Part shown: one piece after another, positions 360 to 57,116 of the stretch
How the letters are laid out: the number at the start of each line of letters is the position of its first letter
Numbering within the stretch: the first letter of the stretch is position 1
Assembly: GCA_964484145.1 (NCBI GenBank)
Contig: CAZAED010000003.1
Span: 1 to 58,516, forward strand
Source: an uncultured Candidatus Saccharibacteria bacterium
Lineage (GTDB): Bacteria; Patescibacteriota; Doudnabacteria; UBA920
Direction of reading: 5' to 3'
Length of the DNA stretch: 58,516 nt
Translations under genes and position numbers: made by a program
Notes under the pieces: model-generated
What the model was told of the DNA's origin: nothing
Seen by the model: the letters and a program-made list of their open reading frames with translations, nothing else
Database searches by the model: none

Positions 360-923
360 ATGACTAAGTCCAATACAACAGAACAGAAAGTTATAAAGGC
401 ATCTGCCCTAAATCTTCGGATTTCTCCGCGTAAGATGCGTCTTTTAACTGACTTAGTTAGAGGTATGTATGTTGACCAGGCTGTAACGGCTTTAGAATAT
501 GCGCCACAAAAAGGCGCGGAATTTTTACTCAGAGCTATAAAATCTGCAGCCGCGAACGCCGTAAATAATTTTGCTTTAAAACCGGAAAATTTGTATGTAA
601 AAACCGTTACCTGCGATATGGGAAGAGTTATGAAACGCTATTTTCCAAGAGCTCGCGGCAGCGCGTTTGTTATAAAGCGCAAAATGGCTCACGTAAATGT
701 TGAACTTTCAGAAAAGGCGCGTGGTGGTAAAGCAGCTTCCCGTTTAGAACTTTTTAAGAAAAAACAGTCTGAAAATTTAGCAAGTGAAGACAAGAAGGAT
801 GCTACAGAAAAGAAGACCGAAAGCCCGAAAATTAAACAGCATACAGTTAAGACCGACGAACAGGTTAAAATGAACAAAGCTCAAAACAAGAGAAGACTAT
901 TTAATAGAAAGAGCGGAGAGTAA
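360..923 (+). CDS. rplV: 50S ribosomal protein L22 with long Lys/Glu-rich C-terminal extension
   Basis: The L22 core (ISPRKMRLLTDLVRG, RARGSAFVIKRKMAHV) occupies the first ~115 aa. Operon position fits. The remaining ~70 aa are low-complexity K/E-rich sequence. Confidence 0.93.
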   Translation: MTKSNTTEQKVIKASALNLRISPRKMRLLTDLVRGMYVDQAVTALEYAPQKGAEFLLRAIKSAAANAVNNFALKPENLYVKTVTCDMGRVMKRYFPRARGSAFVIKRKMAHVNVELSEKARGGKAASRLELFKKKQSENLASEDKKDATEKKTESPKIKQHTVKTDEQVKMNKAQNKRRLFNRKSGE

Positions 924-1004
924 TATAAAATTTAGGATATAAGATGTAAGATTTAGTTTGCATACTTATATCATAAATCCTAAATCATAAATCTTACATT
1001 TATT
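921..1004 (+). repeat. stop-to-start word-hairpin, family B (TAGGATATAAGATGTAAGA / TCTTACAT..TATCCTA)
   Basis: The 5' block 921-960 contains no C and the 3' block 961-1004 contains no G. ATGTAAGATTTA pairs with TAAATCTTACAT. Confidence 0.85.
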
Positions 1005-1700
1005 ATGGGACATAAGATTAATCCAACTTCATTTAGGCTTAAAGTAACCGACACGTGGAAATCGCGCTGGTTTGTTAAGCGAGGCTTTCAAAAAGCATTA
1101 GCTGAAGACGTTGCCATTCGCGCCTACTTAGAGCAGCACTTAAAAAAGGCCGGTCTAGTTAGGCTTGAAATTGAACGCGGCGGTACCGGTCAAATTACTA
1201 TTACTGTTAAAACTACTAAACCCGGGTTAATAATTGGAAAAGGCGGCGCGGGTATAGAGGAGCTTAAAAAGAAGATTAAACAGAAGCTAAGAATTAGAAA
1301 AGAATTGCGTGTAAATATTGAAGAAGTAAGGGATATAAACTTGCAGGCACAGGTTATAGCAGACGGCATAAGTGAACAAATTGAAAAACGCGTTGCTTTT
1401 AGAAAGCTTATGAAGCAGTCGTTAGAGCAAATTATGCAGGCTGGGGCTAAGGGTGCCAAAGTTTCTATAGGCGGAAGACTTAACGGAGCAGATATAGCAA
1501 GAACAGAGCATTTGTCACAAGGCAAAATCCCACTTCATACCATTAGAGCTGATATAGATTTTGCAAGAAGTACAGCTTTTACTACCTACGGCACTGTAGG
1601 TATAAAAGTATGGATATACAGAGGAGATGTATTTGAGGAAAAGAAGTCAGTAGCAGTAAATAAACCAGCGATTGAGCCGGTTATCGCAAAAGTTAAGTAA
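1005..1700 (+). CDS. rpsC: 30S ribosomal protein S3
   Basis: MGHKINP-FRL N-terminus, KH-domain GKGG motif, operon order. Confidence 0.96.
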   Translation: MGHKINPTSFRLKVTDTWKSRWFVKRGFQKALAEDVAIRAYLEQHLKKAGLVRLEIERGGTGQITITVKTTKPGLIIGKGGAGIEELKKKIKQKLRIRKELRVNIEEVRDINLQAQVIADGISEQIEKRVAFRKLMKQSLEQIMQAGAKGAKVSIGGRLNGADIARTEHLSQGKIPLHTIRADIDFARSTAFTTYGTVGIKVWIYRGDVFEEKKSVAVNKPAIEPVIAKVK

Positions 1701-1726
1701 AGTATTTATTAATTTACTAATTAGTT

Positions 1727-2131
1727 ATGTTCATTCCGTCTAAACTTAAACACCGCAAGCATCATCGCGGTCATACAAAGGGTGTGGCTACTGCGGGTAC
1801 CAACATAGACTTTGGCCAATTTGCCTTAAAGTCTTTGGAAAATGCTTGGGTAACTGCCAGACAAATCGAGTCCGCAAGAAGAGCGATGACCCGTTACGTT
1901 CAGCGCGGCGGTAAAATTTGGATCCGCCTTTTTGCCGACAAGCCAATTACAGTTCACGGAAACGAAAGTCCTATGGGTGGCGGTAAAGGCGCGGTTGACC
2001 ACTTTGTATGTGTGGTAAAGAAAGGTAAGATTTTGTTTGAAATGGACGGCGTAACTAGAGAGCAAGCGCAAGAAGCTATGAGATTGGCAAGTTATAAGTT
2101 ACCGGTTAAGACAAAGTTTTTATCAAAGTAA
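1727..2131 (+). CDS. rplP: 50S ribosomal protein L16
   Basis: [22 protein letters not shown] and MGGGKG motifs; operon order. Confidence 0.96.
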
Positions 2132-2138
2132 TTTATTT

Positions 2139-2226
2139 TACGGATTACGGACAGAGTACGGATATACGGATCATAATAAACCCGTTATCTACGTATCCGT
2201 ATATCCGTAAGAATCCGTAATCAGTA
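2139..2226 (+). repeat. stop-to-start word-hairpin, family A ((TACGGAT)n / (ATCCGTA)n)
   Basis: Four TACGGA(T/C) words at 2139-2171 face ATCCGTA words at 2193-2220. Confidence 0.88.
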
Positions 2227-2231
2227 AAGAT

Positions 2232-2423
2232 ATGAAGTTTAAAGAACTTACAACTAAATCTGAAGCAGAGCTTAAGAAAATGCTAGAAGAATTGCGCCAC
2301 GAAGCTCATGGTCTGAAAATGAAGCTTCGCTTGAATGAATCTAAGCACAGCCATAAGCTAGCTGGAATGAAGAAAGATATCGCTAGAATATTAACTCATT
2401 TACACACGAAAACAGCGAAATAG
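2232..2423 (+). CDS. rpmC: 50S ribosomal protein L29
   Basis: 63-aa helical protein (ELR-E...LRL) between L16 and S17. Confidence 0.9.
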   Translation: MKFKELTTKSEAELKKMLEELRHEAHGLKMKLRLNESKHSHKLAGMKKDIARILTHLHTKTAK

Positions 2424-2495
2424 AAAATTAGAGAAGTAGAGAAGCAGTATCGACTAACTTTCTAATTCTCTAATTCACTAACTATCTAAATTTAT
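2424..2495 (+). repeat. stop-to-start word-hairpin, family C (TTAGAGAA / TTCTCTAA)
   Basis: ATTAGAGAAGTAGAGAAG faces CTTTCTAATTCTCTAATTC. Confidence 0.85.
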
Positions 2496-2738
2496 ATGAC
2501 ATCAGATTCTAAAAAACAGCAAATGACCGGCGAAGTGGTTTCCACCAAAATGATGAAAACCGTGGTTGTTAAGGTAGACTCAAGAAAACGCCATCCTAAA
2601 TATAAGAAAGCTTATACAGTTTCAAAGCGCTTTAAAGCCCATACAGAAGAAAAGTTTGTAGTAGGGGACAAAGTAATTATTGAAGCCTGTAAGCCAATTA
2701 GCAAAGATAAGAGATTTAAAGTAATATCTAAAGCTTAA
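2496..2738 (+). CDS. rpsQ: 30S ribosomal protein S17
   Basis: G-VVS-KM-KTVVV-V and HPKYKK motifs; operon order. Confidence 0.93.
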   Translation: MTSDSKKQQMTGEVVSTKMMKTVVVKVDSRKRHPKYKKAYTVSKRFKAHTEEKFVVGDKVIIEACKPISKDKRFKVISKA

Positions 2739-2816
2739 GAGAAATAGAAAATTTGAGAAAAAGAGAAATGGAATTAACTAACTCTCTAATTCTCTAACTC
2801 ACTAACTATCTAATTT
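2739..2816 (+). repeat. stop-to-start word-hairpin, family C
   Basis: A C-free GAGAAATAGAAAATTTGAGAAAAAGAGAAATGGAATT block is followed by a G-free AACTAACTCTCTAATTCTCTAACTCACTAACTATCTAATTT block. Confidence 0.85.
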
Positions 2817-3218
2817 ATGTTACAAGTAAGATCCTGGATTAAAATAGCAGACAATACCGGCGTTAAAATCGCTAATATTTTTGGCGGTAGCGGAAAAAAT
2901 CGCAGCCGTTTTGTTAGAGTTGGAGACGTTGTCTCAGCTTCCGCAAAACAGGTAGCGCCTAACGGCAACTACAAAAAGGGCGACAAAATTAAGGTAGCTA
3001 TAGTTAGAACCAGAAAAGAAATGCGCAGGAGTGACGGGTCTTATATTAGATTTGATGAAAATGCCGGAGTGCTTGTAAAGAAAGACGCGAAAGGTAATTT
3101 TGAAATAATCGGTACTCGTATATTCGGTCCTATTCCAAGAGAAATTCGTGATATGGCAAGTGGGTATTATGAAGATGCTTATAAGAAAATAGTATCATTA
3201 GCTCCAGAAGTTATATAG
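2817..3218 (+). CDS. rplN: 50S ribosomal protein L14
   Basis: ADNTG, VRTRKE-RR-DGSYIRFD-NA and GTRIFGPIPRE motifs ending in SLAPEVI. Slightly longer than the usual ~122 aa. Confidence 0.95.
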   Translation: MLQVRSWIKIADNTGVKIANIFGGSGKNRSRFVRVGDVVSASAKQVAPNGNYKKGDKIKVAIVRTRKEMRRSDGSYIRFDENAGVLVKKDAKGNFEIIGTRIFGPIPREIRDMASGYYEDAYKKIVSLAPEVI

Positions 3219-3303
3219 CAGATTACAGATTAAAGATTATAGATTCCAGTAAAAGCTGTATCTAAATCTGAAATCTGAAATCTGAAATCTTTAATCTATA
3301 TTT
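3219..3303 (+). repeat. stop-to-start word-hairpin, family D (CAGATTA / (AAATCTGA)n)
   Basis: CAGATTACAGATTAAAGATTATAGATT faces TCTAAATCTGAAATCTGAAATCTGAAATCTTTAATCTA. Confidence 0.88.
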
Positions 3304-3621
3304 ATGAACAAACTCAGAATTAAAAAAGGCGATACAGTAAAAGTGCTTTCCGGCAAAGACAAAGGCAAAACCGGCAAGGTTATTTCGGTAATGCCAAAAC
3401 TTGGTAAGGTTGTTGTAGAAAACGCCAATATGCATACTCGTTTTGAAAAGGCTAAAAAAGCCGGCGAGAAAGGTAAAAAAGTTACTTTTTCTTCCCCTAT
3501 GCAAATTTCGAAAGTCCAGTTAATAGATCCGCATTCAGGTAATCCAACAAGAGTAAACTATACTTTTTTAGAAAACGGTAACAAGCAAAGAACAGCTAAG
3601 GCCAGTGGAAAGGCAGTATAA
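3304..3621 (+). CDS. rplX: 50S ribosomal protein L24
   Basis: KOW motif KKGDTVKVLSGKDKGKTGKV; operon order. Confidence 0.94.
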   Translation: MNKLRIKKGDTVKVLSGKDKGKTGKVISVMPKLGKVVVENANMHTRFEKAKKAGEKGKKVTFSSPMQISKVQLIDPHSGNPTRVNYTFLENGNKQRTAKASGKAV

Positions 3622-3693
3622 TGTACGGAAGTACAGATAATACGGATCATGTGGATCTGTAAAATCTGTAAGATCCGTAATTCTGTAAATTAT
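3622..3693 (+). repeat. ~70-nt hairpin repeat, copy 1 of 3 (GTACGGAAGTACAGATAATACGGATCAT...GGATCTGTAAAATCTGTAAGATCCGTAATTCTGTA)
   Basis: Near-identical to 4234-4304 and 4977-5051. Confidence 0.92.
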
Positions 3694-4233
3694 ATGGAAA
3701 GATTACAAGAAAAATATAATAAGGAAATTGTTAAAGCTTTGAAAGAAAAGTTTGGCTTTAAGAATGTAATGGAAGTACCAAGAATTTTGAAAGTTGTTAT
3801 TAATGTGGGCGTTGGAAAAATTAAGGAAGATAAGAAGCGTATAGATTTAGTAGTTGAAGATATTGCCAAAATTGCAGGACAGGCTCCGGTAAAGAATTTG
3901 TCCCGCAAGTCTATTTCAGGTTTTAAAGTAAGACAAAACCAAATTGTAGGTTTAAGTGTTACTTTAAGAGGATATAGAATGTATAGCTTTTTAGACAAGT
4001 TGGTCAATGTGGCCTTACCAAGAGTAAGAGATTTCCAGGGTATAAGCAAAAAAGGTTTCGACGGCCGTGGTAATTATCACTTGGGAATGAAAGAGCAAAT
4101 AGTTTTTCCGGAAGTTTCTCCGGATTCTCTAGAAAATATATTCGGCTTGGAAATTTCGGTAGTCACCAACGCTAAAAGAGACGATACAGCATATGAACTT
4201 TTAAAATTAATGAAATTCCCGTTTAAAGATTAA
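3694..4233 (+). CDS. rplE: 50S ribosomal protein L5
   Basis: The L5 sequence begins at MERLQEKYNKEIV. The 15 upstream codons of the tracked ORF (from 3649) read through the intergenic repeat. NLSRKSISGFKVR and RDFQG motifs are present. Confidence 0.93.
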   Translation: MERLQEKYNKEIVKALKEKFGFKNVMEVPRILKVVINVGVGKIKEDKKRIDLVVEDIAKIAGQAPVKNLSRKSISGFKVRQNQIVGLSVTLRGYRMYSFLDKLVNVALPRVRDFQGISKKGFDGRGNYHLGMKEQIVFPEVSPDSLENIFGLEISVVTNAKRDDTAYELLKLMKFPFKD

Positions 4234-4304
4234 TGTACGGAAGTACAGATAGTACGGATCATAGGGATCTGTAAAATCTGTAGAATCCGTAATTCTGTAA
4301 ATTT
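4234..4304 (+). repeat. ~70-nt hairpin repeat, copy 2 of 3
   Basis: Differs from copy 1 at a handful of positions. Confidence 0.92.
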
Positions 4305-4499
4305 ATGGCTACAGTAGCACACATTGTCAGAGCAAAACGAAGTAGAACCAAGGCAAAATTTTCCAGTAGGATAATTCGCCGTTGTTTTCGCTGCGGTAGA
4401 AAAGCTGCTTATATTCGAGATTTTGACCTTTGTAGAATTTGTTTTAGAGAATTAGCCAGTAAGGGAGAAATCCCTGGTGTTTCAAAAGCTTCCTGGTAA
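4305..4499 (+). CDS. rpsN: 30S ribosomal protein S14, zinc-binding type Z
   Basis: 64 aa, CxxC...CxxC (CFRCGR...CRICFRE), ends in W; operon order. Confidence 0.94.
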
Positions 4500-4583
4500 A
4501 TTTTATAAATTCGTAATCCCGACAAATATCTTTAAATAATCGATAATTAGTATATTAGTATCAATTAGTATTTAGTAAAGAAT

Positions 4584-4976
4584 ATGTATACAGACCCAAT
4601 CTCAGACATGCTAACCAGAATCCGCAACGCGTTGTCCGCAAAAAAGGATGACCTTGTTTTGCCATATTCAAAGTTTAAAAAGAACTTGGCGGATTTGCTG
4701 ATGCAAGAGGGTTTTGTGGCCGGAGTAAACGAATTAGAAGGTGACCATAAAATGCTCCAAATAAATTTAAAATATTCAGGCGCGGGCGAACCGGTAATTG
4801 CAGGAATAAAGCGCGTAAGTAAACCGGGGCAGAGAATTTATTTGTCTAAAGACAGCTTGCCTAGAACTAACAGCGGCCTTGGTCTTACTGTAGTTTCTAC
4901 TTCTAAAGGTTTAATGTCAGACAGAAAAGCAAGAAAAGAAAAAGTTGGCGGAGAAGTAATATGCCAGGTTTGGTAA
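4584..4976 (+). CDS. rpsH: 30S ribosomal protein S8
   Basis: DPISDMLTRIRNA N-terminus and GGEVICQVW C-terminus. Confidence 0.96.
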   Translation: MYTDPISDMLTRIRNALSAKKDDLVLPYSKFKKNLADLLMQEGFVAGVNELEGDHKMLQINLKYSGAGEPVIAGIKRVSKPGQRIYLSKDSLPRTNSGLGLTVVSTSKGLMSDRKARKEKVGGEVICQVW

Positions 4977-5051
4977 TTAACGTACGGAAGTACAGATAAT
5001 ACGGATCATACGGATCTGTAAAATCTGTAGAATCCGTAATTCAGTATATTT
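4977..5051 (+). repeat. ~70-nt hairpin repeat, copy 3 of 3
   Basis: Same sequence family as copies 1 and 2, between rpsH and rplF. Confidence 0.92.
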
Positions 5052-5606
5052 ATGTCAAGAATTGGAAAAAAACCCATAAGCATTCCTAGCGGAGTAAAGG
5101 TAGAAAAAACTGCCGGTCTTTTAAAGGTGTCCGGTCCGAAAGGTAATTTGCAGCAGGAGATTCATCCGCTTGTAACTGTTAATATTGTAGAAAACGAAGT
5201 TACTGTTGATGTTGTAAAGAAAGAAGACAAAAAACAGAGAGCATTGTGGGGTTTGTTCCGCTCTTTAGTTTTTAATATGATAGAAGGTGTTACAAAAGGT
5301 TTTGAAAAAAAGCTCGAAGTAAATGGCGTAGGCTTTAAGGTAGCATCTCAACCTGGTAAAATAGTTATGTCCTTGGGTTTTTCTCACCCGGTTGAAGTTA
5401 CGGTTCCAAAAGATTTACAGGCTGTTGTAGAAAAGAACTTAATTACTATTACCGGAGCAGACAAACAGAGAGTTGGACAATTTGCAGCTGAAATTAGAGA
5501 GTTGAAAAAACCTGAGCCGTATAAAGGTAAAGGTATTAAATATATAGACGAAGTTATTGTTAAGAAAGCGGGTAAAGTGGTTAAAGTAGTTGGTGGAGGC
5601 AAGTAA
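5052..5606 (+). CDS. rplF: 50S ribosomal protein L6
   Basis: MSRIGKKPI-IP-GV and PEPYKGKGI-Y motifs. Confidence 0.96.
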   Translation: MSRIGKKPISIPSGVKVEKTAGLLKVSGPKGNLQQEIHPLVTVNIVENEVTVDVVKKEDKKQRALWGLFRSLVFNMIEGVTKGFEKKLEVNGVGFKVASQPGKIVMSLGFSHPVEVTVPKDLQAVVEKNLITITGADKQRVGQFAAEIRELKKPEPYKGKGIKYIDEVIVKKAGKVVKVVGGGK

Positions 5607-5687
5607 ATATAAAATTTAGGATATAAGATGTAAAATGTTAGAGCTTAGTATATCCTAAATCCTAAATCATAAACCCTATATTTTTTT
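5604..5687 (+). repeat. stop-to-start word-hairpin, family B, second copy
   Basis: The first ~30 nt are essentially identical to 921-950. The 3' block is G-poor (TATCCTAAATCCTAAATCATAAACCC). Confidence 0.88.
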
Positions 5688-6041
5688 ATGGACAAGAACA
5701 AGCACAAAATAATAAAGCGAAATGTAAGGCATAGCAGAGTTCGCGCAAAAATTTCCGGTACTGAAAAGCGCCCTCGTTTAAGCGTATACAGAAGTTTGGC
5801 AGGTATTTACGCCCAGTTAATAGACGACTCAAACGGAAAAACTTTGGCTTTTGCATCAGCGAAAGAAATTAAGTCAAAGGCAAAAAAGACCGACATTTCC
5901 AAAGAAGTTGGAAAATTATTGGCACAAAAAGCAGTCGCAAAAAAAATATCTGAATGTGTATTCGATAGAGGCGGCTTTGCCTATCATGGCAGAGTAAAAG
6001 CTTTGGCAGAAGGCGCCAGAGAAGGCGGGCTTAAATTTTAA
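5688..6041 (+). CDS. rplR: 50S ribosomal protein L18
   Basis: [17 protein letters not shown] and [23 protein letters not shown] motifs. Confidence 0.96.
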
Positions 6042-6059
6042 TTAACTTATTTTACTATT

Positions 6060-6563
6060 ATGGCTTTTGAAAAAAGACGAAGACAATCTAGGGACGGGGA
6101 ACGCGAAGTTAGAGAGTTTGACCAAAAGACGGTAGAGGTCAAGCGTGTTACTCGTGTGGTTGCCGGCGGAAAAAGAATGCGTTTTCGCGCACTGGTTGTT
6201 ATTGGCGACCATAAAGGTAAAGTAGGTATGGGTTTAAGAAAAGGTGCAGACGTTTCTGAAAGTGTAAACAAAGCAGTTAACGCAGCTAAGAAGAACATGA
6301 TTACCTTGCCGCTCATTAACGGAACTATCCCTCACGGAATTAATGTAAAGTATAAGTCTTCTAAGTTAATGTTAAAACCAGCCAGACCAGGTACCGGTGT
6401 TATTGCGGGTGGGGCAGTTCGTCAGGTTTTTGAATTAGCCGGAGTTAAGAATGTTGTTTCTAAGATGCTTGGTTCAAATAACAAAGTTAATAATATTAAA
6501 GCTGTTTTTGAAGCTTTTACTAAAATGAAGAGCAAGGAAGTATTAGCAAAGATGCGCAAGTAA
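6060..6563 (+). CDS. rpsE: 30S ribosomal protein S5
   Basis: V-RVTRVVAGGKRMRFRALVV-GD-KG-VG-G and GTGVIAGG-VR motifs. Confidence 0.96.
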   Translation: MAFEKRRRQSRDGEREVREFDQKTVEVKRVTRVVAGGKRMRFRALVVIGDHKGKVGMGLRKGADVSESVNKAVNAAKKNMITLPLINGTIPHGINVKYKSSKLMLKPARPGTGVIAGGAVRQVFELAGVKNVVSKMLGSNNKVNNIKAVFEAFTKMKSKEVLAKMRK

Positions 6564-6630
6564 ATAGCTAATAAGCGAATGAGCAATTCAGCTTATAAGC
6601 TTACTAACTTATCTGCTTATTACTAAATTT
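6564..6630 (+). repeat. stop-to-start word-hairpin, family I (AAGC..TAAGC, central AGCTTATAAGCT palindrome)
   Basis: Shares AGCTTATAAGCT with 47648-47712. Confidence 0.75.
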
Positions 6631-7107
6631 ATGTTAAAACTCCATAACCTAAAAAAACATCCTAAGTCTACACATCGCCGCAAAGTTGTTGGTCGCGGTC
6701 TTGGCAGTGGTCACGGTACATATTCCACTCGTGGTGGTAAAGGCCAAACAGCCAGAACTGGTCATAGTAAAATGCCTGCTGGTTTTGAAGGTGGTCGTCA
6801 GCCAATAGTAAGACAGTTGCCAAAACTTAGAGGCTTTAGAGCCTTAACTGCTAAGCCTTTTGCTTTGTCTCTTTCTAAATTTGACGTTTTTGCGGATGGA
6901 GCAACTGTGGATATTAAATCTTTAATTGAAAAGGGTATAATAGAAAAAGGCCAGAGTGTTAAAGTTTTGGCCGGTGAAATAAAAAAGAAATTGAATATAA
7001 AGCTTCCTGTTTCAGCATCGGCTAAAGCGGTTATAGAAAAAGCTGGCGGAACAGTAATAGAACAGAATAACACAGAAGAAAAAACAGATAAACACGGAAG
7101 TAAGTAA
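6631..7107 (+). CDS. rplO: 50S ribosomal protein L15
   Basis: VGRG-GSGHG-YSTRG-KGQ-AR-G and FEGGRQP motifs. Follows S5 directly, with no L30 between them. Confidence 0.95.
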   Translation: MLKLHNLKKHPKSTHRRKVVGRGLGSGHGTYSTRGGKGQTARTGHSKMPAGFEGGRQPIVRQLPKLRGFRALTAKPFALSLSKFDVFADGATVDIKSLIEKGIIEKGQSVKVLAGEIKKKLNIKLPVSASAKAVIEKAGGTVIEQNNTEEKTDKHGSK

Positions 7108-7166
7108 TAGTGATTGTAGTTTAGATCCGTGCCTTTCTGTAAGTATCAGTGTTAATCAGTAACGAT

Positions 7167-8456
7167 ATGAATAAAATCTTACTTATTTGGAAAACCAAGG
7201 ACTTGCGCAATAAAATTTTAATTGTGCTAGGTCTTTTGTTAATTACCCGTGTTTTAACCCATGTTCCTATTCCCGGTATTGACCCAACCGGACTTAAGGC
7301 TTTCTTTCAGAATAGCCAGTTTTTGAATTTACTTGATGTTTTTTCCGGTGGTGGTTTAACGAATTTTTCCATAGCTATGCTCGGCGTAGGTCCTTATATT
7401 ACGGCCAGTATTATTATGCAGCTTCTTACTATAATAATACCGAGTTTTGCAGAAATGCAAAAAGAAGGTGGGGAAGCAGGAAGAGCTCAGCTTAACCAGT
7501 ATACCCGATATTTAACTATTCCTTTAGCACCGCTTCAGGCTTTTGGCACAATTAGACTTCTTTCCAGCCAAGGTGCCGGTGCGATTTTAGGCAGTTTTTC
7601 ACCATTTCAATGGTTCTTGGTTTTGCTTTCAGTAACTGCTGGTACCATGCTGATAATGTGGATAGGCGAAATAATGTCTGAATTTGATATTGGAAATGGT
7701 ATTTCTTTGGTAATTTTTGCTGGTATTGTAGCAAGGGTTCCAAGCGCTATTTCACAGGCCTATCAAATCTATCAGGGTAATCCAAATGCCGTTCCAACTT
7801 TGGTTGGGTTCGTATTAGTATTTCTTGCTGTAATTGCTGGTGTTGTGCTGGTTACTGAGGCACAAAGAAATATTCCTGTGGCGTACGCAAAACGTGTGCG
7901 TGGTAACAGACTTTTTGGTGGCGTTAATACCCATTTGCCCTTAAGACTTAACCAAGCAGGAGTTATTCCAATAATTTTTGCAATTTCTATAATGCTTTTT
8001 CCGGCTATGATAGCGCAGTTTTTTGTGAACGCAAAAAGCGCTCTTATTGCTAATTATGCGCAAAAGATTATTGCCTTATTTAATGACACAGGTACATGGT
8101 TTTACGGTATTATATACTTTGTTATGATATTAGGTTTTACTTATTTCTATACCGCGGTTGTATTTAACCCTGAAGAAATTGCGGAAAATGTGCAAAAAAA
8201 TGGTGGTTTTATACCAGGACTAAGACCCGGAGCTCAGACCGCAGACTACTTGTCTTCTGTGCTAAACCGTATTACTTTAGCCGGCGCTGTATTCTTGGCT
8301 ATAATTGCTATTTTGCCGCTTGTTGCTCAAAATTTAACCGACACTAAAGCCTTAACCCTAGGCGGCACATCTCTCTTAATTGTGGTGTCCGTAGTTATTG
8401 AAATTATAAAGAAAATAGAAGCCCAGTTAACCATGCATGATTACGAAGGCTTTTAG
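7167..8456 (+). CDS. secY: preprotein translocase subunit SecY
   Basis: Ten-TM profile with SecY motifs (GVGPYITASIIMQLL, GGFIPG-RPG). The ATG at 7167 is preferred over the upstream GTG at 7149, which lies inside the intergenic repeat. Confidence 0.94.
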   Translation: MNKILLIWKTKDLRNKILIVLGLLLITRVLTHVPIPGIDPTGLKAFFQNSQFLNLLDVFSGGGLTNFSIAMLGVGPYITASIIMQLLTIIIPSFAEMQKEGGEAGRAQLNQYTRYLTIPLAPLQAFGTIRLLSSQGAGAILGSFSPFQWFLVLLSVTAGTMLIMWIGEIMSEFDIGNGISLVIFAGIVARVPSAISQAYQIYQGNPNAVPTLVGFVLVFLAVIAGVVLVTEAQRNIPVAYAKRVRGNRLFGGVNTHLPLRLNQAGVIPIIFAISIMLFPAMIAQFFVNAKSALIANYAQKIIALFNDTGTWFYGIIYFVMILGFTYFYTAVVFNPEEIAENVQKNGGFIPGLRPGAQTADYLSSVLNRITLAGAVFLAIIAILPLVAQNLTDTKALTLGGTSLLIVVSVVIEIIKKIEAQLTMHDYEGF

Positions 8457-13269: not shown

Positions 13270-13311
13270 ATAAGCGAAATATTTAGCTTATATTAAGGAA
13301 AGGGAATTTAT

Positions 13312-13545
13312 ATGTCAGTTGAGACTCATAAACCTTCGGGTGAAAATAAAAAAGGTTTTGTTGTTGGTATTGTAGAAGACTTTTTTTTTGGTCATCATGG
13401 TGTGGCTGAAACGGCATCTGAAGTCGGAGCAGATTTAAAAGCGGGCGAGAAAACAGTAAAAGCAGTTGGCGGGGCAGTTTTAGGGGGTTTTGCTGATATT
13501 TCTGAAGGTGGCGATACTAGTTCTGCTGGACATGGGCATCATTAA
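13312..13545 (+). CDS. hypothetical small Gly/His-rich protein
   Basis: AAGGAAAGGG RBS-like purine tract and a TTGTAG-17-TATAAT promoter upstream. Ends in GHGHH. Confidence 0.55.
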   Translation: MSVETHKPSGENKKGFVVGIVEDFFFGHHGVAETASEVGADLKAGEKTVKAVGGAVLGGFADISEGGDTSSAGHGHH

Positions 13546-16940: not shown

Positions 16941-18608
16941 GTGCTTGAAACAAAAGAACAAAAACAATACTTTGGAATAGTTGTGGTACTAATAATTTCT
17001 TTAATTGGCGTTTCGGTTTGGAACCGCACGTCTTTTACCTTTACAGACAAAAAGAATTACACGAATCAGAATAGTGAGGTTGAAATGGCCCGCAAGTATT
17101 TGGCCTACGTAAATAGTTTGCCTATAGACAAGGCTGCTAGTAAAGACTTATTCCAAACAATAATTACAGACAAAGAAATAAAACAGGAAGTTGTAATGGC
17201 TTTAGGGTCAGACAAGCCTGTTAATATGCCCGCGGTGGATTCTAGTAGTTTTAAAATACAGCAAGTTTCAGGTAAGCCCGCCATGGAAAAATATTTAAGC
17301 GATACGGTAAGTAAGACTTTAGATTTTAATACTCAAGCCACGCAAATTCAAACCGCGCTTTTTACCGGGGACCAAAATAGTTTAGAAAAAGCAAAAACGC
17401 TTTATAATGCTTATAAACAAGAGTTGCTAGCTGTGGAAGTTCCTAAAGAAGCTCAAAATTTACATGAAAATTTAGTTTTAACCATGGAGAGTTATGGAAA
17501 ATTGCTGAATACTTCTCAAAATTATGACCCTGGGGATTATACAAAAAATGACGCGATTTGGCCTGAAGTGTACCAAAATTACGCAGTTATAAATAATGCG
17601 GCAAAAAATTATGTCGAAGGTTTAACAAAATTAACCACTAAGTATCAAATAGCGGAAATTAATATACCGCTAAATATTGTCGACTCCTCATTGCCAACGA
17701 AAAATCCGTTTATAAAAACCGCGAACGCATTTTTAGGTATTGGCGACGTAACTGTTACAGTCGGCGACATACCAAGAATTATTATGGACGCGATAAAAGA
17801 AGGGCTTAGAAGCGCCTTTGTTTCTTTTATGGGTACTATGCTTAACAAGCTAATTGCCAAAATTGAGAGCAATTATATGATTGCCAATTTTTTGTACTAC
17901 TCGGATGCGCTCGTGGCCGGCCAGTACACCGACGACTACTTAAATAAGTATGTTGCGCTGCAGTCTGACAGGCAAATAATAAAGCGGTTTATACCTCAGT
18001 TTTCCTGTGGAAGAAATACAGCAGACTTACGCCCTGTTTTTGAAGCACAAGCTAAAGATTATTTGGGTTTTGTTCCTCAAAATATTAGCCCCAATGACCC
18101 GGATTATTATTCCAAAATGGCAAAAGTAGGGGATTTTATGGCCTCTCCAACCGGCTGGCAGGTTTATTATCAGGATATTGCTGACGAGGCTGAAGCTGAA
18201 GCGGAAAAAAATGCGGACAGGGAATTAACAAGTTCCGGACTTAAGGCAGCCAGAGACCAGCTAAAAAGTGGTTTAGCTAAGTCCGTAAGCAGTTTAGTTA
18301 GCGCGCAAAGAGCTAGTTTTACTTCGCTTTTACAGTTAGGGGCTCAGAACGCGGATGGGATAATTAGCGGTTTTGTTAGTCAGCTTACTCAAACTTTAAT
18401 TAATAACTTCGTTTTTAAAGGAGTTACCGGGGGACCTGCTTCCGGGGTGGGTGTATTAAAAGAACAAGCGACTTGTGTTGCAGTGGCTCAAATTCAGCCA
18501 ATTTTAGCTTTAGATCAGACAGAGTACATACAGCCTCCTCCTCCGCCAACGACAGACCAGATATTTTGTCAGGAAAACCCTGCTGATTCAAGGTGTTCTC
18601 CCAGATAA
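16941..18608 (+). CDS. hypothetical membrane-anchored protein
   Basis: GTG start, one N-terminal TM helix, Pro-rich Cys-containing C-terminus, terminator downstream. Confidence 0.65.
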   Translation: MLETKEQKQYFGIVVVLIISLIGVSVWNRTSFTFTDKKNYTNQNSEVEMARKYLAYVNSLPIDKAASKDLFQTIITDKEIKQEVVMALGSDKPVNMPAVDSSSFKIQQVSGKPAMEKYLSDTVSKTLDFNTQATQIQTALFTGDQNSLEKAKTLYNAYKQELLAVEVPKEAQNLHENLVLTMESYGKLLNTSQNYDPGDYTKNDAIWPEVYQNYAVINNAAKNYVEGLTKLTTKYQIAEINIPLNIVDSSLPTKNPFIKTANAFLGIGDVTVTVGDIPRIIMDAIKEGLRSAFVSFMGTMLNKLIAKIESNYMIANFLYYSDALVAGQYTDDYLNKYVALQSDRQIIKRFIPQFSCGRNTADLRPVFEAQAKDYLGFVPQNISPNDPDYYSKMAKVGDFMASPTGWQVYYQDIADEAEAEAEKNADRELTSSGLKAARDQLKSGLAKSVSSLVSAQRASFTSLLQLGAQNADGIISGFVSQLTQTLINNFVFKGVTGGPASGVGVLKEQATCVAVAQIQPILALDQTEYIQPPPPPTTDQIFCQENPADSRCSPR

Positions 18609-36373: not shown

Positions 36374-36445
36374 TTGGTAGTAAATAGTAGGTAGTAAGTA
36401 GCCTGCATGACTACCAACTACCCACTACCAACTACTTACTAACCT
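36374..36445 (+). repeat. word-hairpin, family H (GGTAGTAAGTAG / CTACTTACTACC-type)
   Basis: A C-free 5' arm faces a G-free 3' arm, ACTACCAACTACCCACTACCAACTACTTACTAACC. Confidence 0.88.
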
Positions 36446-38161
36446 ATGAAAATTTGGAAACTAAAAAATACTATACCTGCCGAACTATCGGAAATATACA
36501 AAGATTACCCAACCTTGCTTGCCCAATTGCTTTTTGATAGAGGGCTTAGGGAAAAAGAAGAAATTCAAAAATTTATTACTGCTAATTACCAAGAGGGCTT
36601 AAACAGCCCCTTTTTGTTCGGTGATATGGAAAAAGCGGTTAACAGAATTTGGCAGGCTATAGAAAGTAACGAAAAAATTACTATTTACGGGGACTATGAC
36701 GCAGATGCTGTAACAGCAAACGCTGTTCTTAGGCAGACTTTTAGTTATTTGGGAGCAAATGCGGATAGCTATATTCCGGACAGATTTGCGGAAGGTTATG
36801 GGGTTAACTTAGAAGCACTTTTTAAAATTAAGGCCAACGGGACTTCTTTAATTATTACAGTAGATTGTGGGACTAACTCTGTAGATGCGGCCGAATGGGC
36901 GAAAGAAAACGGAGTCGATTTTATAATTACCGACCACCACGAAATAATTGGAGAAACGCCAAAAGCTTTTGCGCTAATAAACCCTAAAAACCCAAATGAC
37001 AAGTATCCAGACGACCAAATTGTAGGCGTGGGGGTTGCGTTCAAAATCGCTCAAGCGATTTTGACAAGTGAAAAGTGTAAAGTGCAAAGTAAAAAGTACA
37101 TCGAAGGCTATGAAAAGTGGCTACTTGATTTAGTGGCGATTGGTACGGTGGCGGACTGCCATAAACTTTTGGGGGAGAATAGGGTTTTTGTAAAATACGG
37201 CCTAAAAGTTTTGCAAAAAACCAAATGGGTTGGTCTTAAGGCGCTTATTGAATCTTCAAAGTTGGATTTTAGTAAGCAGCCGCCTGACACCTACAGTTTG
37301 GGTTTTGTTATAGCACCGCGGCTTAACGCGGCCGGACGACTTGAACATGCTAACGTAGCCTTAAATTTGTTGCTCGAAGCTGACCCTGAAAAAGCAAAAG
37401 AAATGGCGCAAAATTTAGAAGAAATAAATTTGCGAAGGCAGGAAATAACCGCGCGCATTATGAGCGAGGCCAGAGAGCAGGCAGAAACTATAAAGCATAG
37501 AAAAGTTTTGGTAATGATGTCTCAGGGCTGGCATAAGGGGGTGGTAGGCTTGGTAGCCGGCAAGATAGCAGAAGAGTTTTATAAGCCCACAATAGTTTTA
37601 GAAAAGGGTGAGGTTGAGGCTACCGGTTCAGCTAGAAGTGTAGGTGAATTTAATGTGGTAGAAGCTTTAAAGTATTCAAGTAGCCACTTAATTCGTTTTG
37701 GTGGACATAAGCAAGCGGCTGGACTTACGCTGAATATAGAAAATTTTGAAATATTCTACCAAACTCTTCTGGATTTTGCTGAGAATAATGCTAATGGCGA
37801 CCAAGGTCCTGTTTTATATCTTGATTCTGAACTTTCCGCGGAAGACTTACAACTTACAACTTACAACTTAATAACTGCTCTGGAGCCTTTTGGAGTTGGT
37901 AACCCCAAGCCCAAATTTTTAGTAAAAAATGTTAAAATAATAAGTAAGAAAACAGTAGGGCAAAAAGCTCAGCATTTACAATTACAAATTTTAGCTGGTG
38001 AAAAACAAATATCTTGCATTGCCTTTAATTTCGGCGACAGATCAAATAGCTTAAATATACACGACGAAATAGATTTGGCTTGCGAGCTTTTGCTCGACAG
38101 TTGGAACGGTCGGGAAAATTTAAAATTAAGAATAATAGATATTAGAAATAATTTAAATTAA
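36446..38161 (+). CDS. recJ: single-stranded-DNA-specific exonuclease RecJ
   Basis: DHH-family motifs (GDYDADAV, VDCG, ITDHHE), GGH--AAG and GVGNPKP motifs. Confidence 0.93.
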   Translation: MKIWKLKNTIPAELSEIYKDYPTLLAQLLFDRGLREKEEIQKFITANYQEGLNSPFLFGDMEKAVNRIWQAIESNEKITIYGDYDADAVTANAVLRQTFSYLGANADSYIPDRFAEGYGVNLEALFKIKANGTSLIITVDCGTNSVDAAEWAKENGVDFIITDHHEIIGETPKAFALINPKNPNDKYPDDQIVGVGVAFKIAQAILTSEKCKVQSKKYIEGYEKWLLDLVAIGTVADCHKLLGENRVFVKYGLKVLQKTKWVGLKALIESSKLDFSKQPPDTYSLGFVIAPRLNAAGRLEHANVALNLLLEADPEKAKEMAQNLEEINLRRQEITARIMSEAREQAETIKHRKVLVMMSQGWHKGVVGLVAGKIAEEFYKPTIVLEKGEVEATGSARSVGEFNVVEALKYSSSHLIRFGGHKQAAGLTLNIENFEIFYQTLLDFAENNANGDQGPVLYLDSELSAEDLQLTTYNLITALEPFGVGNPKPKFLVKNVKIISKKTVGQKAQHLQLQILAGEKQISCIAFNFGDRSNSLNIHDEIDLACELLLDSWNGRENLKLRIIDIRNNLN

Positions 38162-42604: not shown

Positions 42605-42634
42605 GGAAAATCTATAATTAGGGAGAAGGGATAA

Positions 42635-42901
42635 ATGTGGCATCATCATAAGGAGCCGCTGAGGGTGGGACTCTTTGGGTATGATTGGAGAGATAGAATT
42701 GTTCAGGAATTGGCAAGAGTTAGGGGGCATCAGGTTATTTGGATTGCCCATATCCACCAGGCAGGGATTGTTTTGGACTTTTTATTGGACGACCCGCCGG
42801 ACATCCTAGTTGTCCACCCTTTAGCGCGTGTTAATTTCCCTCTGCTATTGTCCCCCCAGGCGGTAGTAGTAATCGGCCCGTCTCGGGCCAAAACAAGGTG
42901 A
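42635..42901 (+). CDS. orphan 88-aa protein in high-GC island 1
   Basis: Strong RBS GGGAGAAGGG at 42621-42630, four nt before the ATG. An intrinsic terminator lies directly downstream. Composition is R/P/W/H-rich, unlike the neighbouring genes. Confidence 0.55.
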   Translation: MWHHHKEPLRVGLFGYDWRDRIVQELARVRGHQVIWIAHIHQAGIVLDFLLDDPPDILVVHPLARVNFPLLLSPQAVVVIGPSRAKTR

Positions 42902-50106: not shown

Positions 50107-50163
50107 ATGAAAATGGATCTAAATCCCGGAAAATTTAGTGTAAAGGACGTGCTATGGATGTAA
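50107..50163 (+). CDS. candidate 18-codon upstream ORF (MKMDLNPGKFSVKDVLWM)
   Basis: GGGAGGA at 50095-50101 sits five nt upstream of this ATG. Its stop overlaps the start of the 290-aa ORF (ATGGATGTAA). Confidence 0.35.
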   Translation: MKMDLNPGKFSVKDVLWM

Positions 50164-51026
50164 ACCAAAGACATTCTGTTGCCGTGTATGGCGCCGTACA
50201 GGCAACTTTCTCCGAGGAGACTGTGGAATTGCTGAGGAGTGGAGTGGCGTTTGTCGGAGCATCTCATGAAATCAGGTCGGGGTTTAATCTCCCGCCAACT
50301 GCCAGGGTCGTGGTGTATTGTAGTAAAGAGCTTGGACAACCCCGAGTCAACTTGCTCAAAAATGCCGCGGCCAAAATGCCCAATGTGCAATTGGTGGAAG
50401 CGTTCCACCAATCTGATATGGAGACGAAGCTTCAGGGGGTGTTGAGTCCCGTTTTAACACCGCCACTCAGACCTGATGGTGGATTGCAGGCAGATGCTCC
50501 TAGCGTACCAACAACATCACTCCCTTCACCAACACCGCCGCCGCCTTCTAACGGCAAACCGGAGCTCAAGCTCCCACCGCACGGACTGAGATGGAGTTTG
50601 ACTGAGTTCGTGTTCAATAATCTTGACAGGGACTTTCGTTCTGTTGGTGGCGAGGTCGAGCGTCTGTTTGGCCTTGCGAAACAGAACGGTTACCCTGAAG
50701 CTACTGAAAGCGGAGTCGGACAAGCTTTTCGCAAATTCCGCCAGGCAAATGGGTTGTCACAGCCCCGTCCCCGGCGCGGCAAGCTGGCTCAAGCACCGGT
50801 CTTGGTAGATTTGGGATACGTCGAAGTACCGGCGGTTGCTGAATTTTTACAGGACATTCAGAAGATGGGCCAAGGTCTCGCCGTTTTTGTGTCAGCGCTC
50901 GAAAAGGAGCGCGCGGGGAACAAGCGGACCATCGAGGAACTCGAGAGACGGATTAAGATACTTGAGGGAAAACTCGAGAATGCCAAGCAGGCCGCCGATC
51001 TGCTGGCAGCACTTCGGGGGCAATAG
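50154..51026 (+). CDS. orphan 290-aa protein in high-GC island 2 (alpha/beta N-domain, Pro-rich linker, C-terminal coiled coil)
   Basis: This is the only ORF spanning the island. A TTGAAA-17-TAGAAT promoter lies upstream and a strong terminator downstream. The nested alternative-frame ORFs are typical GC-rich shadows. Confidence 0.65.
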   Translation: MDVNQRHSVAVYGAVQATFSEETVELLRSGVAFVGASHEIRSGFNLPPTARVVVYCSKELGQPRVNLLKNAAAKMPNVQLVEAFHQSDMETKLQGVLSPVLTPPLRPDGGLQADAPSVPTTSLPSPTPPPPSNGKPELKLPPHGLRWSLTEFVFNNLDRDFRSVGGEVERLFGLAKQNGYPEATESGVGQAFRKFRQANGLSQPRPRRGKLAQAPVLVDLGYVEVPAVAEFLQDIQKMGQGLAVFVSALEKERAGNKRTIEELERRIKILEGKLENAKQAADLLAALRGQ

Positions 51027-56649: not shown

Positions 56650-57075
56650 TTACTTGGGCCGGGGCATTTCCATATACCCCAGTTTTTTCCACTCTGGTGG
56701 GAGTGGGTTGCTTACGAAGCGGAATCCGCCATTGCTTTTTGTGCTGTGCTCGACCAGCCAAATCACGGCGGGGAGATCCCTATCTCTATTGGTCGGTTCG
56801 TCGTGACGTGGTTTTTCCCCTATGGGAAACTGGTTCCGATGGAACACATGCCACCGCTTAGTTCCCCACCCTTTTTGAGGCCTGAATTCTTTGCCGACTG
56901 GCACAGCCCAACAGCGTTGTTGGGATTCGTCCGTGCAAGCGATCAGGAGAATTTTGTCCCCACGATCTTCCGCCGAGGTTACAAAACCCTCGGTAAGCCC
57001 CGAAGTGTTTTTCGGTTGCTCGGTTTGGGCGAACAGTCCGCCCAGAAAAAAACAAAAAGACGCGATCAGTTTCAT
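56650..57075 (-). CDS. orphan secreted 141-aa protein in high-GC island 3
   Basis: GAGGAGG RBS at 57087-57081, five nt from the ATG. Signal-peptide-like N-terminus MKLIASFCFFLGGLFAQ. A perfect hairpin terminator follows the stop. Confidence 0.6.
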   Translation of the reverse strand: MKLIASFCFFLGGLFAQTEQPKNTSGLTEGFVTSAEDRGDKILLIACTDESQQRCWAVPVGKEFRPQKGWGTKRWHVFHRNQFPIGEKPRHDEPTNRDRDLPAVIWLVEHSTKSNGGFRFVSNPLPPEWKKLGYMEMPRPK

Positions 57076-57116
57076 AGCGTCCTCCTCGCAAGGAGTTTAA
57101 CAGTTATAAAGGTATT

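Follow-up and report, generated by a model that had tools for sequence, protein, structure and literature searches.

Initiation largely without Shine-Dalgarno pairing, a canonical anti-Shine-Dalgarno tail in relatives and an extended rpsU Shine-Dalgarno in a Doudnabacteria genome

Introduction

Among Bacteroidia, the ribosomes of Flavobacterium johnsoniae are blind to the Shine-Dalgarno (SD) sequence, and rpsU, the gene for bS21, carries an SD that takes part in an autoregulatory loop (PMC7797042, PMC9976891, PMC13000453, PMC13000457). In Flavobacteriia, natural covariation between the SD and the anti-SD (ASD) has been used to argue that the two pair at rpsU (PMC7797042). Within the CPR, Tsurumaki et al. 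(2022, PMC9297842) reported a Parcubacteria subgroup whose members have no anti-SD motif. A survey of bacteria in which SDs are scarce and the ASD is conserved makes no mention of CPR, Patescibacteria or Parcubacteria, and neither a sharp split by gene GC nor an order-wide rpsU SD forms part of its description. Our literature search found no description of an rpsU SD for CPR, and, apart from Tsurumaki et al. (2022), nothing that connects Doudnabacteria or Patescibacteria with the use of SDs.

The Doudnabacteria genome described here resembles each of these systems in part. As in Bacteroidia, a genome-wide lack of SDs goes together with a fully canonical anti-SD (here read in relatives), the start region is A-rich and weakly structured, and rpsU has an unusually long, clade-conserved SD whose extension covaries with a variant 16S tail. 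As in the Parcubacteria of Tsurumaki et al., SD-ASD helices are not expected at most genes of this CPR lineage, but all relatives whose 16S tail was read have retained the anti-SD motif. With SD-scarce, ASD-conserved bacteria in general, the genome shares SD-independent initiation, a kept ASD, and low structure and AU-richness at the start; bS1 is also encoded. Judged by sequence features, it would belong to this known class, with the addition of a Bacteroidia-like feature at rpsU.

Results

Locus and gene map

The analysed MAG comprises 1.16 Mb in 57 contigs with a GC content of 0.39, and the window, meaning the whole stretch of 58,516 nucleotides that was analysed, is its contig C3. Within the window, rpsQ and both of its flanking spacers (rpmC-rpsQ and rpsQ-rplN) sit in the S10/spc ribosomal-protein cluster, where Pfam matches identify L22, S3, L16, L29, S17, L14, L24, L5, L15 and SecY (Table 1). 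A search of the whole window with Rfam gave no family at the gathering score.

Table 1. Features of the window, with coordinates counted from its first nucleotide.
Feature	Coordinates	Strand	Details
rplV-rpsC spacer (family B), C-free 5' block followed by G-free 3' block, hairpin	921..1004	+	z -2.4
rpmC (uL29), gene 5' of the first spacer	2232..2423	+	Pfam Ribosomal_L29, E 5e-11
rpmC-rpsQ spacer, hairpin, leader ending TAAATTTAT-ATG, no SD	2424..2495	+	inverted repeats I5, I6, I10
Arms of the rpmC-rpsQ spacer	purine-rich 5' arm ~2421-2443; G-free 3' arm 2453-2495	+	43-nt G-free run
rpsQ (uS17)	2496..2738	+	Pfam Ribosomal_S17, E 4e-23
C-free block, 5' arm of the rpsQ-rplN spacer hairpin, A/G-rich words	2739..2775	+	0 C in 37 nt
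G-free block, 3' arm and rplN leader, ending CTAATTT-ATG	2776..2816	+	0 G in 41 nt
rplN (uL14), start without SD	2817..3218	+	Pfam Ribosomal_L14; dG +2.9
r-protein genes rplX to rplO with hairpin spacers between them	3219..6630	+	folds z -2.6 to -5.2
Hairpin spacers from rplX to rplO	3219-3303, 3622-3693, 4234-4304, 4977-5051, 5607-5687, 6564-6630	+	
Family H spacer	C-free 36374-36401; G-free 36410-36445	+	8-nt loop; ATG at 36446
High-GC island 1, 88-aa ORF	42620..42901	+	strong SD AGGGAGAAGGG, 4 nt, ATG at 42635
High-GC island 2, 290-aa ORF	50138..51026	+	moderate SD AAAGGA (50154, dG -6.7); GC 0.54
High-GC island 3, 141-aa ORF	56650..57092	-	GAGGAGG, 5 nt, ATG at 57075

Start sites

A hexamer-trained ORF caller gave 1147 genes, 1113 of them complete and with starts refined by a PWM. 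This in-house combination biases the start logo towards its own motif, a bias mitigated by a homology-anchored set of r-protein starts and by control windows. Pairing energies were calculated with the 10-nt ASD core ACCUCCUUUC; the full 16-nt tail was dropped because control windows then scored as often as true upstream windows.

The logo of the 1113 starts carries no SD signal. At -5 to -12 G is depleted rather than enriched (0.09-0.16 vs a background of 0.197), A reaches 0.40-0.51 at -4 to -11 and T 0.63 at -1, and the commonest strings 5' of the start are the hexamer AAATTT and the triplet TTT. Five pre-start strings had been singled out in an earlier, sequence-only reading of the window, and all five end in TTTATG or TTTATATG. 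That reading had also noted the absence of a GGAGG-like tract before the r-protein genes and secY, which holds: at 14 of the 15 starts listed (360 to 7167), dG with the ASD core lies between -2.6 and +3.0 kcal/mol. The fifteenth, a TTG start assigned to rplE at 3739 (dG -5.1), had been wrongly chosen, and the homology-anchored ATG at 3694 gives +0.6. For rpsQ the leader scores +2.0, and from rplX to rplO all starts lack an SD by their dG values, with T at -1 in most.

Genome-wide, SD-like pairing is no commoner before the 918 genes with GC < 0.43 than at control positions (dG <= -7 in 1.4-7.6% vs 2.7-4.3%). The same SD-less pattern is found in a 400-kb sample of a second genus of the family (G017), and homology-anchored r-protein starts from 30 genomes reach dG <= -7 kcal/mol in only 5.6% of 251 cases. 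Weak AAAGGA-type sites precede rplA and rpsF, and rpsR has no SD. Applied to SD-rich CPR genomes, the same code finds SDs in 27-56%. The absence of SDs is thus real and lineage-wide, and the SD-independent initiation proposed from the window alone extends to the genome and its relatives. A G-free leader had been taken there as what S1-dependent or SD-independent initiation would favour; SD-independence stands, and a short-form bS1 (411 aa, three or more S1 domains) is encoded, but the G-free leader does not hold up as a dedicated initiation device.

A trough in MFE and GC extends from about -15 to +20 around starts, where GC falls to 0.26; in 30-nt windows the MFE is -1.3 around the start, vs -2.4 upstream and -3.0 in coding sequence. 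A crude index calculated for 301 CPR genomes, the ratio of AGGAG-N4-10-ATG counts to counts of the reversed motif, served only to choose genomes; on it our genome scores 1.24, near the bottom, its family 1.0-2.6 and SD-rich families 3-5, with many families equally low. The prfB gene is a single 367-aa open frame with no programmed frameshift, and hence says nothing on use of the ASD in elongation.

Spacer blocks and hairpins

The C-free and G-free blocks that had drawn attention to this window hold to the nucleotide, with 0 C in 921-960, 2739-2775 and 36374-36401 and 0 G in 961-1004, 2776-2816 and 36410-36445. They are the two arms of inverted repeats that fold as long hairpins (z -1.6 to -6.5 vs dinucleotide shuffles). 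Around rpsQ, the rpmC-rpsQ spacer folds at -17.7 kcal/mol (z -3.1), and the pairing of 2739-2775 with 2776-2816 is a weak fold (z -1.6). The 3' arms of these neighbouring spacers are near copies of each other, 2776-2816 and 2453-2489 being 95% identical (blastn 94.6% over 37 nt), and a further copy lies on contig C48. Such arms recur genome-wide as dispersed copies of about 30 nt, part of them within genes: the family B spacer has ~17 arm-length copies in the genome and family H ~16, part of the latter also within genes. Among co-directional spacers of 40-200 nt, 183 of 404 fold with z < -3 genome-wide, as do five of the seven r-protein spacers examined here.

The sequence-only reading had noted, in families B, C and H, a C-free block after the stop and a G-free block before the next start; as a rule this does not survive the genome-wide count. 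In 355 co-directional spacers of 50-200 nt, that order occurs in 28 (7.1 expected from shuffles) and the opposite order in 16 (7.9 expected), a 28:16 split with a binomial p = 0.10. The G/C skew index per spacer is symmetric, 118 vs 118, and among the 183 strong hairpins the 5' arm holds most of the G in 68 and most of the C in 97. Block composition against shuffles therefore gives no asymmetry that is fixed genome-wide, the outcome that the reading itself had named as refuting it, and a fixed polarity with the purine arm first was rejected on the same three counts. What precedes starts is AU-rich and poor in G and C alike (G 0.115 and C 0.134 in the 20 nt directly before them) rather than specifically G-free.

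The median gap is 5 nt between the stop and the stem and 11 nt between the stem and the next start. Leaders in hairpin-bearing spacers are predicted to be paired up to about -12 (P ~0.65), falling to ~0.5 at -8 to -2, so that in these spacers, according to the folding model, the description of the leader as unstructured would be valid only for its last ~10 nt and the first codons. The sense strand of the spacers folds better than the antisense strand by only 0.9 kcal/mol.

When the same operon is followed through 30 genomes of the order, long spacers with hairpins turn up sporadically within the family; at order level most are missing and the median r-protein operon spacer is 9 nt. Even close relatives differ in whether a given junction carries a hairpin, and one relative, with a uL5 that is 96% identical, has unrelated words in place of the hairpin words. 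Relatives in the family and order with compact spacers of 1-20 nt (e.g. L011, L016, L019 and L023) are equally SD-less, and the hairpins are separable from SD-lessness because r-protein starts lack SDs both with and without them. The C-free and G-free blocks are thus complementary arms of dispersed hairpin repeats with fast turnover. They resemble REP, MITE and RPE-like palindromes and heptanucleotide repeats in their imperfect inverted-repeat arms, their grouping into families, their presence in many spacers and sometimes in genes, and their variability among relatives; unlike REP, MITE or RPE-like elements, their arms are arrays of 6-9 nt words and not a fixed element. Because these are dispersed hairpin-repeat arms without fixed polarity, and relatives with compact spacers are equally SD-less, the blocks are not a dedicated initiation device and are of little consequence for initiation.

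The anti-SD tail and the rpsU leader

No 16S gene is assembled in the MAG, and we infer its tail from relatives. Same-genus, family and order relatives carry the canonical 16S tail GGAUCACCUCCUUUCU, and GGATCACCTCCTTTCT stands at the 16S 3' end in 13 of 13 relatives with a readable end (a single one from the same genus, six others from the family and six at order level). Loss of CCTCCT from the 16S 3' end was thus found in none of these 13; the tail, suggested by the sequence-only reading as a place to check, shows the opposite of ASD loss.

Within bulk genes, O/E against synonymous-codon shuffles is 0.44-0.73 for the five hexamers with the highest complementarity to the ASD, and 40 permutations of the same composition have a median O/E of 0.98 (Mann-Whitney p = 0.0006). 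This avoidance suggests that ordinary ribosomes can pair with SD-like hexamers; codon-pair bias and restriction systems are among the alternative causes that may lie behind it.

The rpsU gene of our genome lies on contig C23 (18051-18293, minus strand), with GAAAGGGGUG 8 nt before its TTG start. An extended SD precedes rpsU in 28 of the 28 relatives with an assignable start, at dG -8.6 to -13, in the form GAAAG(A/G)GGUGA or a close variant, with a spacing to the start codon that is usually 6-8 nt (range 4-12). In these leaders a 12-nt block is conserved and its flanks are not. Compared with the 5.6% of 251 other r-protein starts, this gives a Fisher p = 2e-28, in a set of kin that are not independent. 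Five rpsU leaders searched against Rfam returned only spurious miRNA-like matches to perfect hairpins. A hairpin mimicking the anti-SD occurs in the rpsU leaders of some relatives only, and we do not claim it as conserved.

In a wider CPR sample, a strong rpsU SD is kept in the SD-poor families f22, f27, f87 and f91. Family f22 has the variant 16S tail UUACCUCC in three of three genomes; four of its nine rpsU SDs read GGAGGUAA and none GGUGA. The home order has the tail UCACCUCC and GGUG in the rpsU SD in 25 of 28. GGUGA vs GGUAA in the rpsU SD thus tracks UCACC vs UUACC in the tail, and by this covariation the anti-SD tail appears to be used by rpsU.

Across 301 CPR genomes, bS21 was undetected in 58, including 15 of 15 in family f13. 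The sample, used for both the AGGAG index and the bS21 survey, includes G181, on which no claim depends. In our CPR sample, degenerate ASD cores were seen only in f13, with ATCTCC (AUCUCC) or AACTCC (AACUCC), and f44, with TTATTTCT (UUAUUUCU), both families without a detectable bS21; in two further genomes without bS21 the tail is canonical. With two apparent events, the link of ASD decay to loss of bS21 is suggestive only.

GC-rich genes led by SD sequences

Genes with GC >= 0.46 (n = 89, mostly short) have an SD in 28-43% of cases, vs 3-9% at control positions, and at a canonical spacing that peaks at 5-9 nt. They are scattered over 19 contigs. Genome-wide, dG <= -8 is reached by 62 genes, vs 28-32 at controls, and ~40-60 genes have good SDs. 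In G017, SDs precede 26% of genes in the top GC decile vs 4-6% in the lower three GC quartiles.

The three high-GC islands of the window fit this pattern. Strong SDs had been attributed to all three of their ORFs, which is right for two (42635 and 57075) and too generous for the moderate site at 50154; the observation that high-GC ORFs are SD-led generalises to the whole genome and to the second genus. The ORF of island 3 has a signal-peptide-like N-terminus. Among the 20 strongest SD-led genes, no common function was found: ten have no Pfam match, and the matches include pilin-like, DUF378, PEP-CTERM, transketolase, amidohydrolase, tRNA-editing, response regulator, LuxR and hexapeptide transferase. 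Miscalled ORFs may account for some of the GC-rich "genes", as may recent import of genes together with their SDs.

Discussion

From the observed anatomy, statistics, conservation and covariation, we consider it probable that the hairpin-arm blocks are incidental and that initiation has two tiers, with a free and functional ASD that most mRNAs do not need. The spacer blocks are arms of hairpins built from dispersed short-word repeats that have colonised the spacers of the home Doudnabacteria family, and their sequence and polarity would be incidental to initiation. Bulk genes, including the r-protein genes examined except rpsU, would start without SD-ASD pairing, at sites set apart by weak structure and AU-richness between about -15 and +20, by U at -1 and by A-rich sequence at -4 to -11. 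Help would come from bS1 and possibly from pairing of U(-1) with A37 of the initiator tRNA. The canonical anti-SD tail would be kept, presumably accessible, and used for a small class of mRNAs. In this class rpsU, with its order-wide extended SD, would probably be under feedback control, putatively autoregulatory; the other members, ~5% of genes, would be mostly GC-rich, short and lineage-specific, and would use an SD because a GC-rich start provides no unstructured, AU-rich stretch on which ribosomes could land.

The nearest competitor transfers the Bacteroidia-type system to these genomes: the platform of bS21, bS18 and bS6 would hide the anti-SD, mature ribosomes would be SD-blind, and only bS21-deficient ones would read SDs. 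On this view rpsU would regulate itself through its SD, and specialised ribosomes would have the GC-rich SD-led genes as their regulon. An SD-poor genome, a canonical ASD and an extended rpsU SD make up the same triad as in Flavobacteriia (PMC7797042, PMC9976891), SD and ASD covary at rpsU, and degenerate ASD cores coincide with undetectable bS21 in f13 and f44. We nevertheless regard this reading as unlikely. Bacteroidia have a bS21 with a weakly basic C-terminal domain, whereas the C-terminal part here is strongly basic (pI 12.0), and the protein is nearer to proteobacterial bS21: phmmer gives E 0.056 to the F. johnsoniae bS21 of 7JIL vs ~6e-6 to E. coli-type bS21. By a tentative offset count of our own, positions ~54-57 may read R-T-Q-I, the Bacteroidia signature being Tyr54, which we count neither for nor against. 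In the Bacteroidia-type system, whose ribosomes do not recognise SDs in vitro and have the tail docked on the platform, the tail is bound by bS18 (Phe50, Asn56, Gln58 and Lys37) and by Trp100 and Arg103 in the C-terminal helix of bS6; the partner proteins here are a bS18 of 86 aa and a bS6 of 163 aa with a long C-terminal extension. Good SDs are found on ~40-60 genes, and about 5% of genes, GC-rich ones, are SD-led, vs essentially one gene in Bacteroidia. The avoidance of strong SD hexamers in genes suggests pairing by ordinary ribosomes, and the canonical ASD of two bS21-less genomes also speaks against this reading. The start contexts differ as well, with U at -1 and A at -4 to -11 here vs A at -3, -6, -12 and -13 in Bacteroidia, and prfB here has no SD-dependent frameshift site. 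The system is not filed as Bacteroidia-type because its bS21 does not carry the C-terminal signature, and since membership fails on the features tested, the model of a free, functional ASD is preferred.

Translational coupling by hairpins is an established principle in other operons, and the stop-to-start hairpins could in theory replace the SD: a ribosome on the upstream cistron would melt the 5' arm and free the 3' arm as a leader, or, in a variant, the hairpin would bring stop and start together and couple translation along the r-protein operon. The geometry is suitable, as the stems leave a median of 5 nt to the stop and of 11 nt to the start, pairing is predicted to weaken from 0.65 to ~0.5 at -8 to -2, and most of the r-protein spacers examined fold strongly. 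Yet SD-lessness is just as complete with spacers of 1-20 nt, hairpins come and go at the same junction, with words swapped at 96% uL5 identity, arm polarity is not fixed and copies also lie within genes. The sense strand has little advantage over the antisense strand, and a ribosome terminating on the upstream cistron would get no further than the first few base pairs. We thus hold a coupling role of this kind to be improbable; it is possible as an add-on and cannot be the basis of SD-independence. That wrong start calls and chance C-free or G-free runs in AT-rich DNA explain everything is hardly credible and largely refuted by controls: an in-house gene caller was used and ~15 of 355 shuffled AT-rich spacers show both runs in order, but 44 do so in the real spacers, threefold more, homology-anchored r-protein starts lack SDs in 30 genomes, control windows behave like upstream windows, and the same code recovers SDs in SD-rich CPR genomes.

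The two-tier reading can be widened, tentatively and with considerable doubt, to several CPR lineages, Doudnabacteria included. These would have arrived independently at bulk SD-independent initiation with a mainly regulatory anti-SD, serving the rpsU loop and a GC-rich accessory set; the anti-SD, otherwise universally conserved, would decay only once bS21 is lost, and the r-protein solution would be unlike the Tyr54 pocket of Bacteroidia.

For annotation, gene callers and expression designs that assume an SD will misplace starts in these genomes, and the AU-rich, U(-1) context together with the GC-dependent split is a better start rule. The main interest lies in the kept ASD, the order-wide rpsU SD and the GC-rich SD-led gene class. 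An rpsU SD that covaries with the rRNA tail in a lineage unrelated to Bacteroidia bears on why the anti-SD is almost never lost, and the two bS21-less families with decayed tails make the idea of its retention testable by comparative genomics. It is suggested that the anti-SD is retained for a few regulatory mRNAs even where SDs are otherwise unused.

The anti-SD core and bS21

Degenerate anti-SD cores at the 16S 3' tail, namely AUCUCC, AACUCC and UUAUUUCU, were seen, in the CPR genomes sampled, only in families in which no bS21 gene was detected; CCUCC is retained in all bS21-bearing genomes sampled and also in two bS21-less genomes (L188 and L190).

Shine-Dalgarno sites at rpsU and other genes

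In several relatives (L071, L072, L076 and L078), as in the MAG to which the window belongs (L084), the leader of rpsU, the bS21 gene, carries an anti-SD-like stretch, CACCCC, CAUCC or CACCUC, located 10-15 nt 5' of the SD and immediately downstream of a TATAAT-like box. Judged from sequence, this stretch and the SD can form a small hairpin, which would hide the SD; the stretch is missing from the rpsU leaders of many other relatives. In the CPR family f22 (L098-L102, L267-L270), an extended -10 box (TGATATAAT) precedes rpsU by about 30 nt, and the rpsU mRNA is therefore probably monocistronic with a very short leader; the SD of this gene fits a variant 16S tail (UUACCUCC).

Apart from rpsU, moderate SD-like sites were found at rplA and rpsF, and none at rpsR or at those r-protein genes of the window that were examined. 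Few genes of normal GC in the window have an SD-like start, a 77-aa ORF being one of them. The SD-led, GC-rich genes clustered on another contig of the MAG, C5, look like an island, and its members include a LuxR-family regulator and a secreted protein with a PEP-CTERM tail, a feature that is, to our knowledge, unexpected in a CPR genome.

Coordinates of the features discussed (dG, pairing energy with the anti-SD core, kcal/mol)
Feature	Location	Strand	Locus	Description
16S, degenerate anti-SD core			L171-L178, L180 (family f13); L189 (family f44)	
rpsU leader	C23, about 18294-18330	minus	L084	candidate SD-masking hairpin
SD-led GC-rich cluster	C5, 33312-33983, 41491-42237, 42510-43115			GC 0.52-0.58
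rplA (uL1)	C6, 32534-33214			moderate AAAGGA-type SD-like site, dG about -8.7
rpsF (bS6)	C18, 996-1487			moderate AAAGGA-type SD-like site
77-aa ORF	window, 13295-13545			Gly/Val/His-rich, C-terminal HGHH; AAGGAAAGGGA 7 nt before ATG, dG -7.5
prfB	C6, 40126-41175		L138	one uninterrupted frame

Gene order and spacer turnover

No programmed +1 frameshift site is present in prfB of this MAG. Within the window (6041-6631), the order is rplR, rpsE, rplO, with rpsE directly adjoining rplO and the uL30 gene missing in between; absence of uL30 has been reported for CPR bacteria generally. When positions 2424-5051 are compared with L002, from a genome whose uL5 is 96% identical, hairpin spacers occur at the same junctions, whereas the words composing them are entirely different; the content of the spacers thus changes far faster than the genes do.
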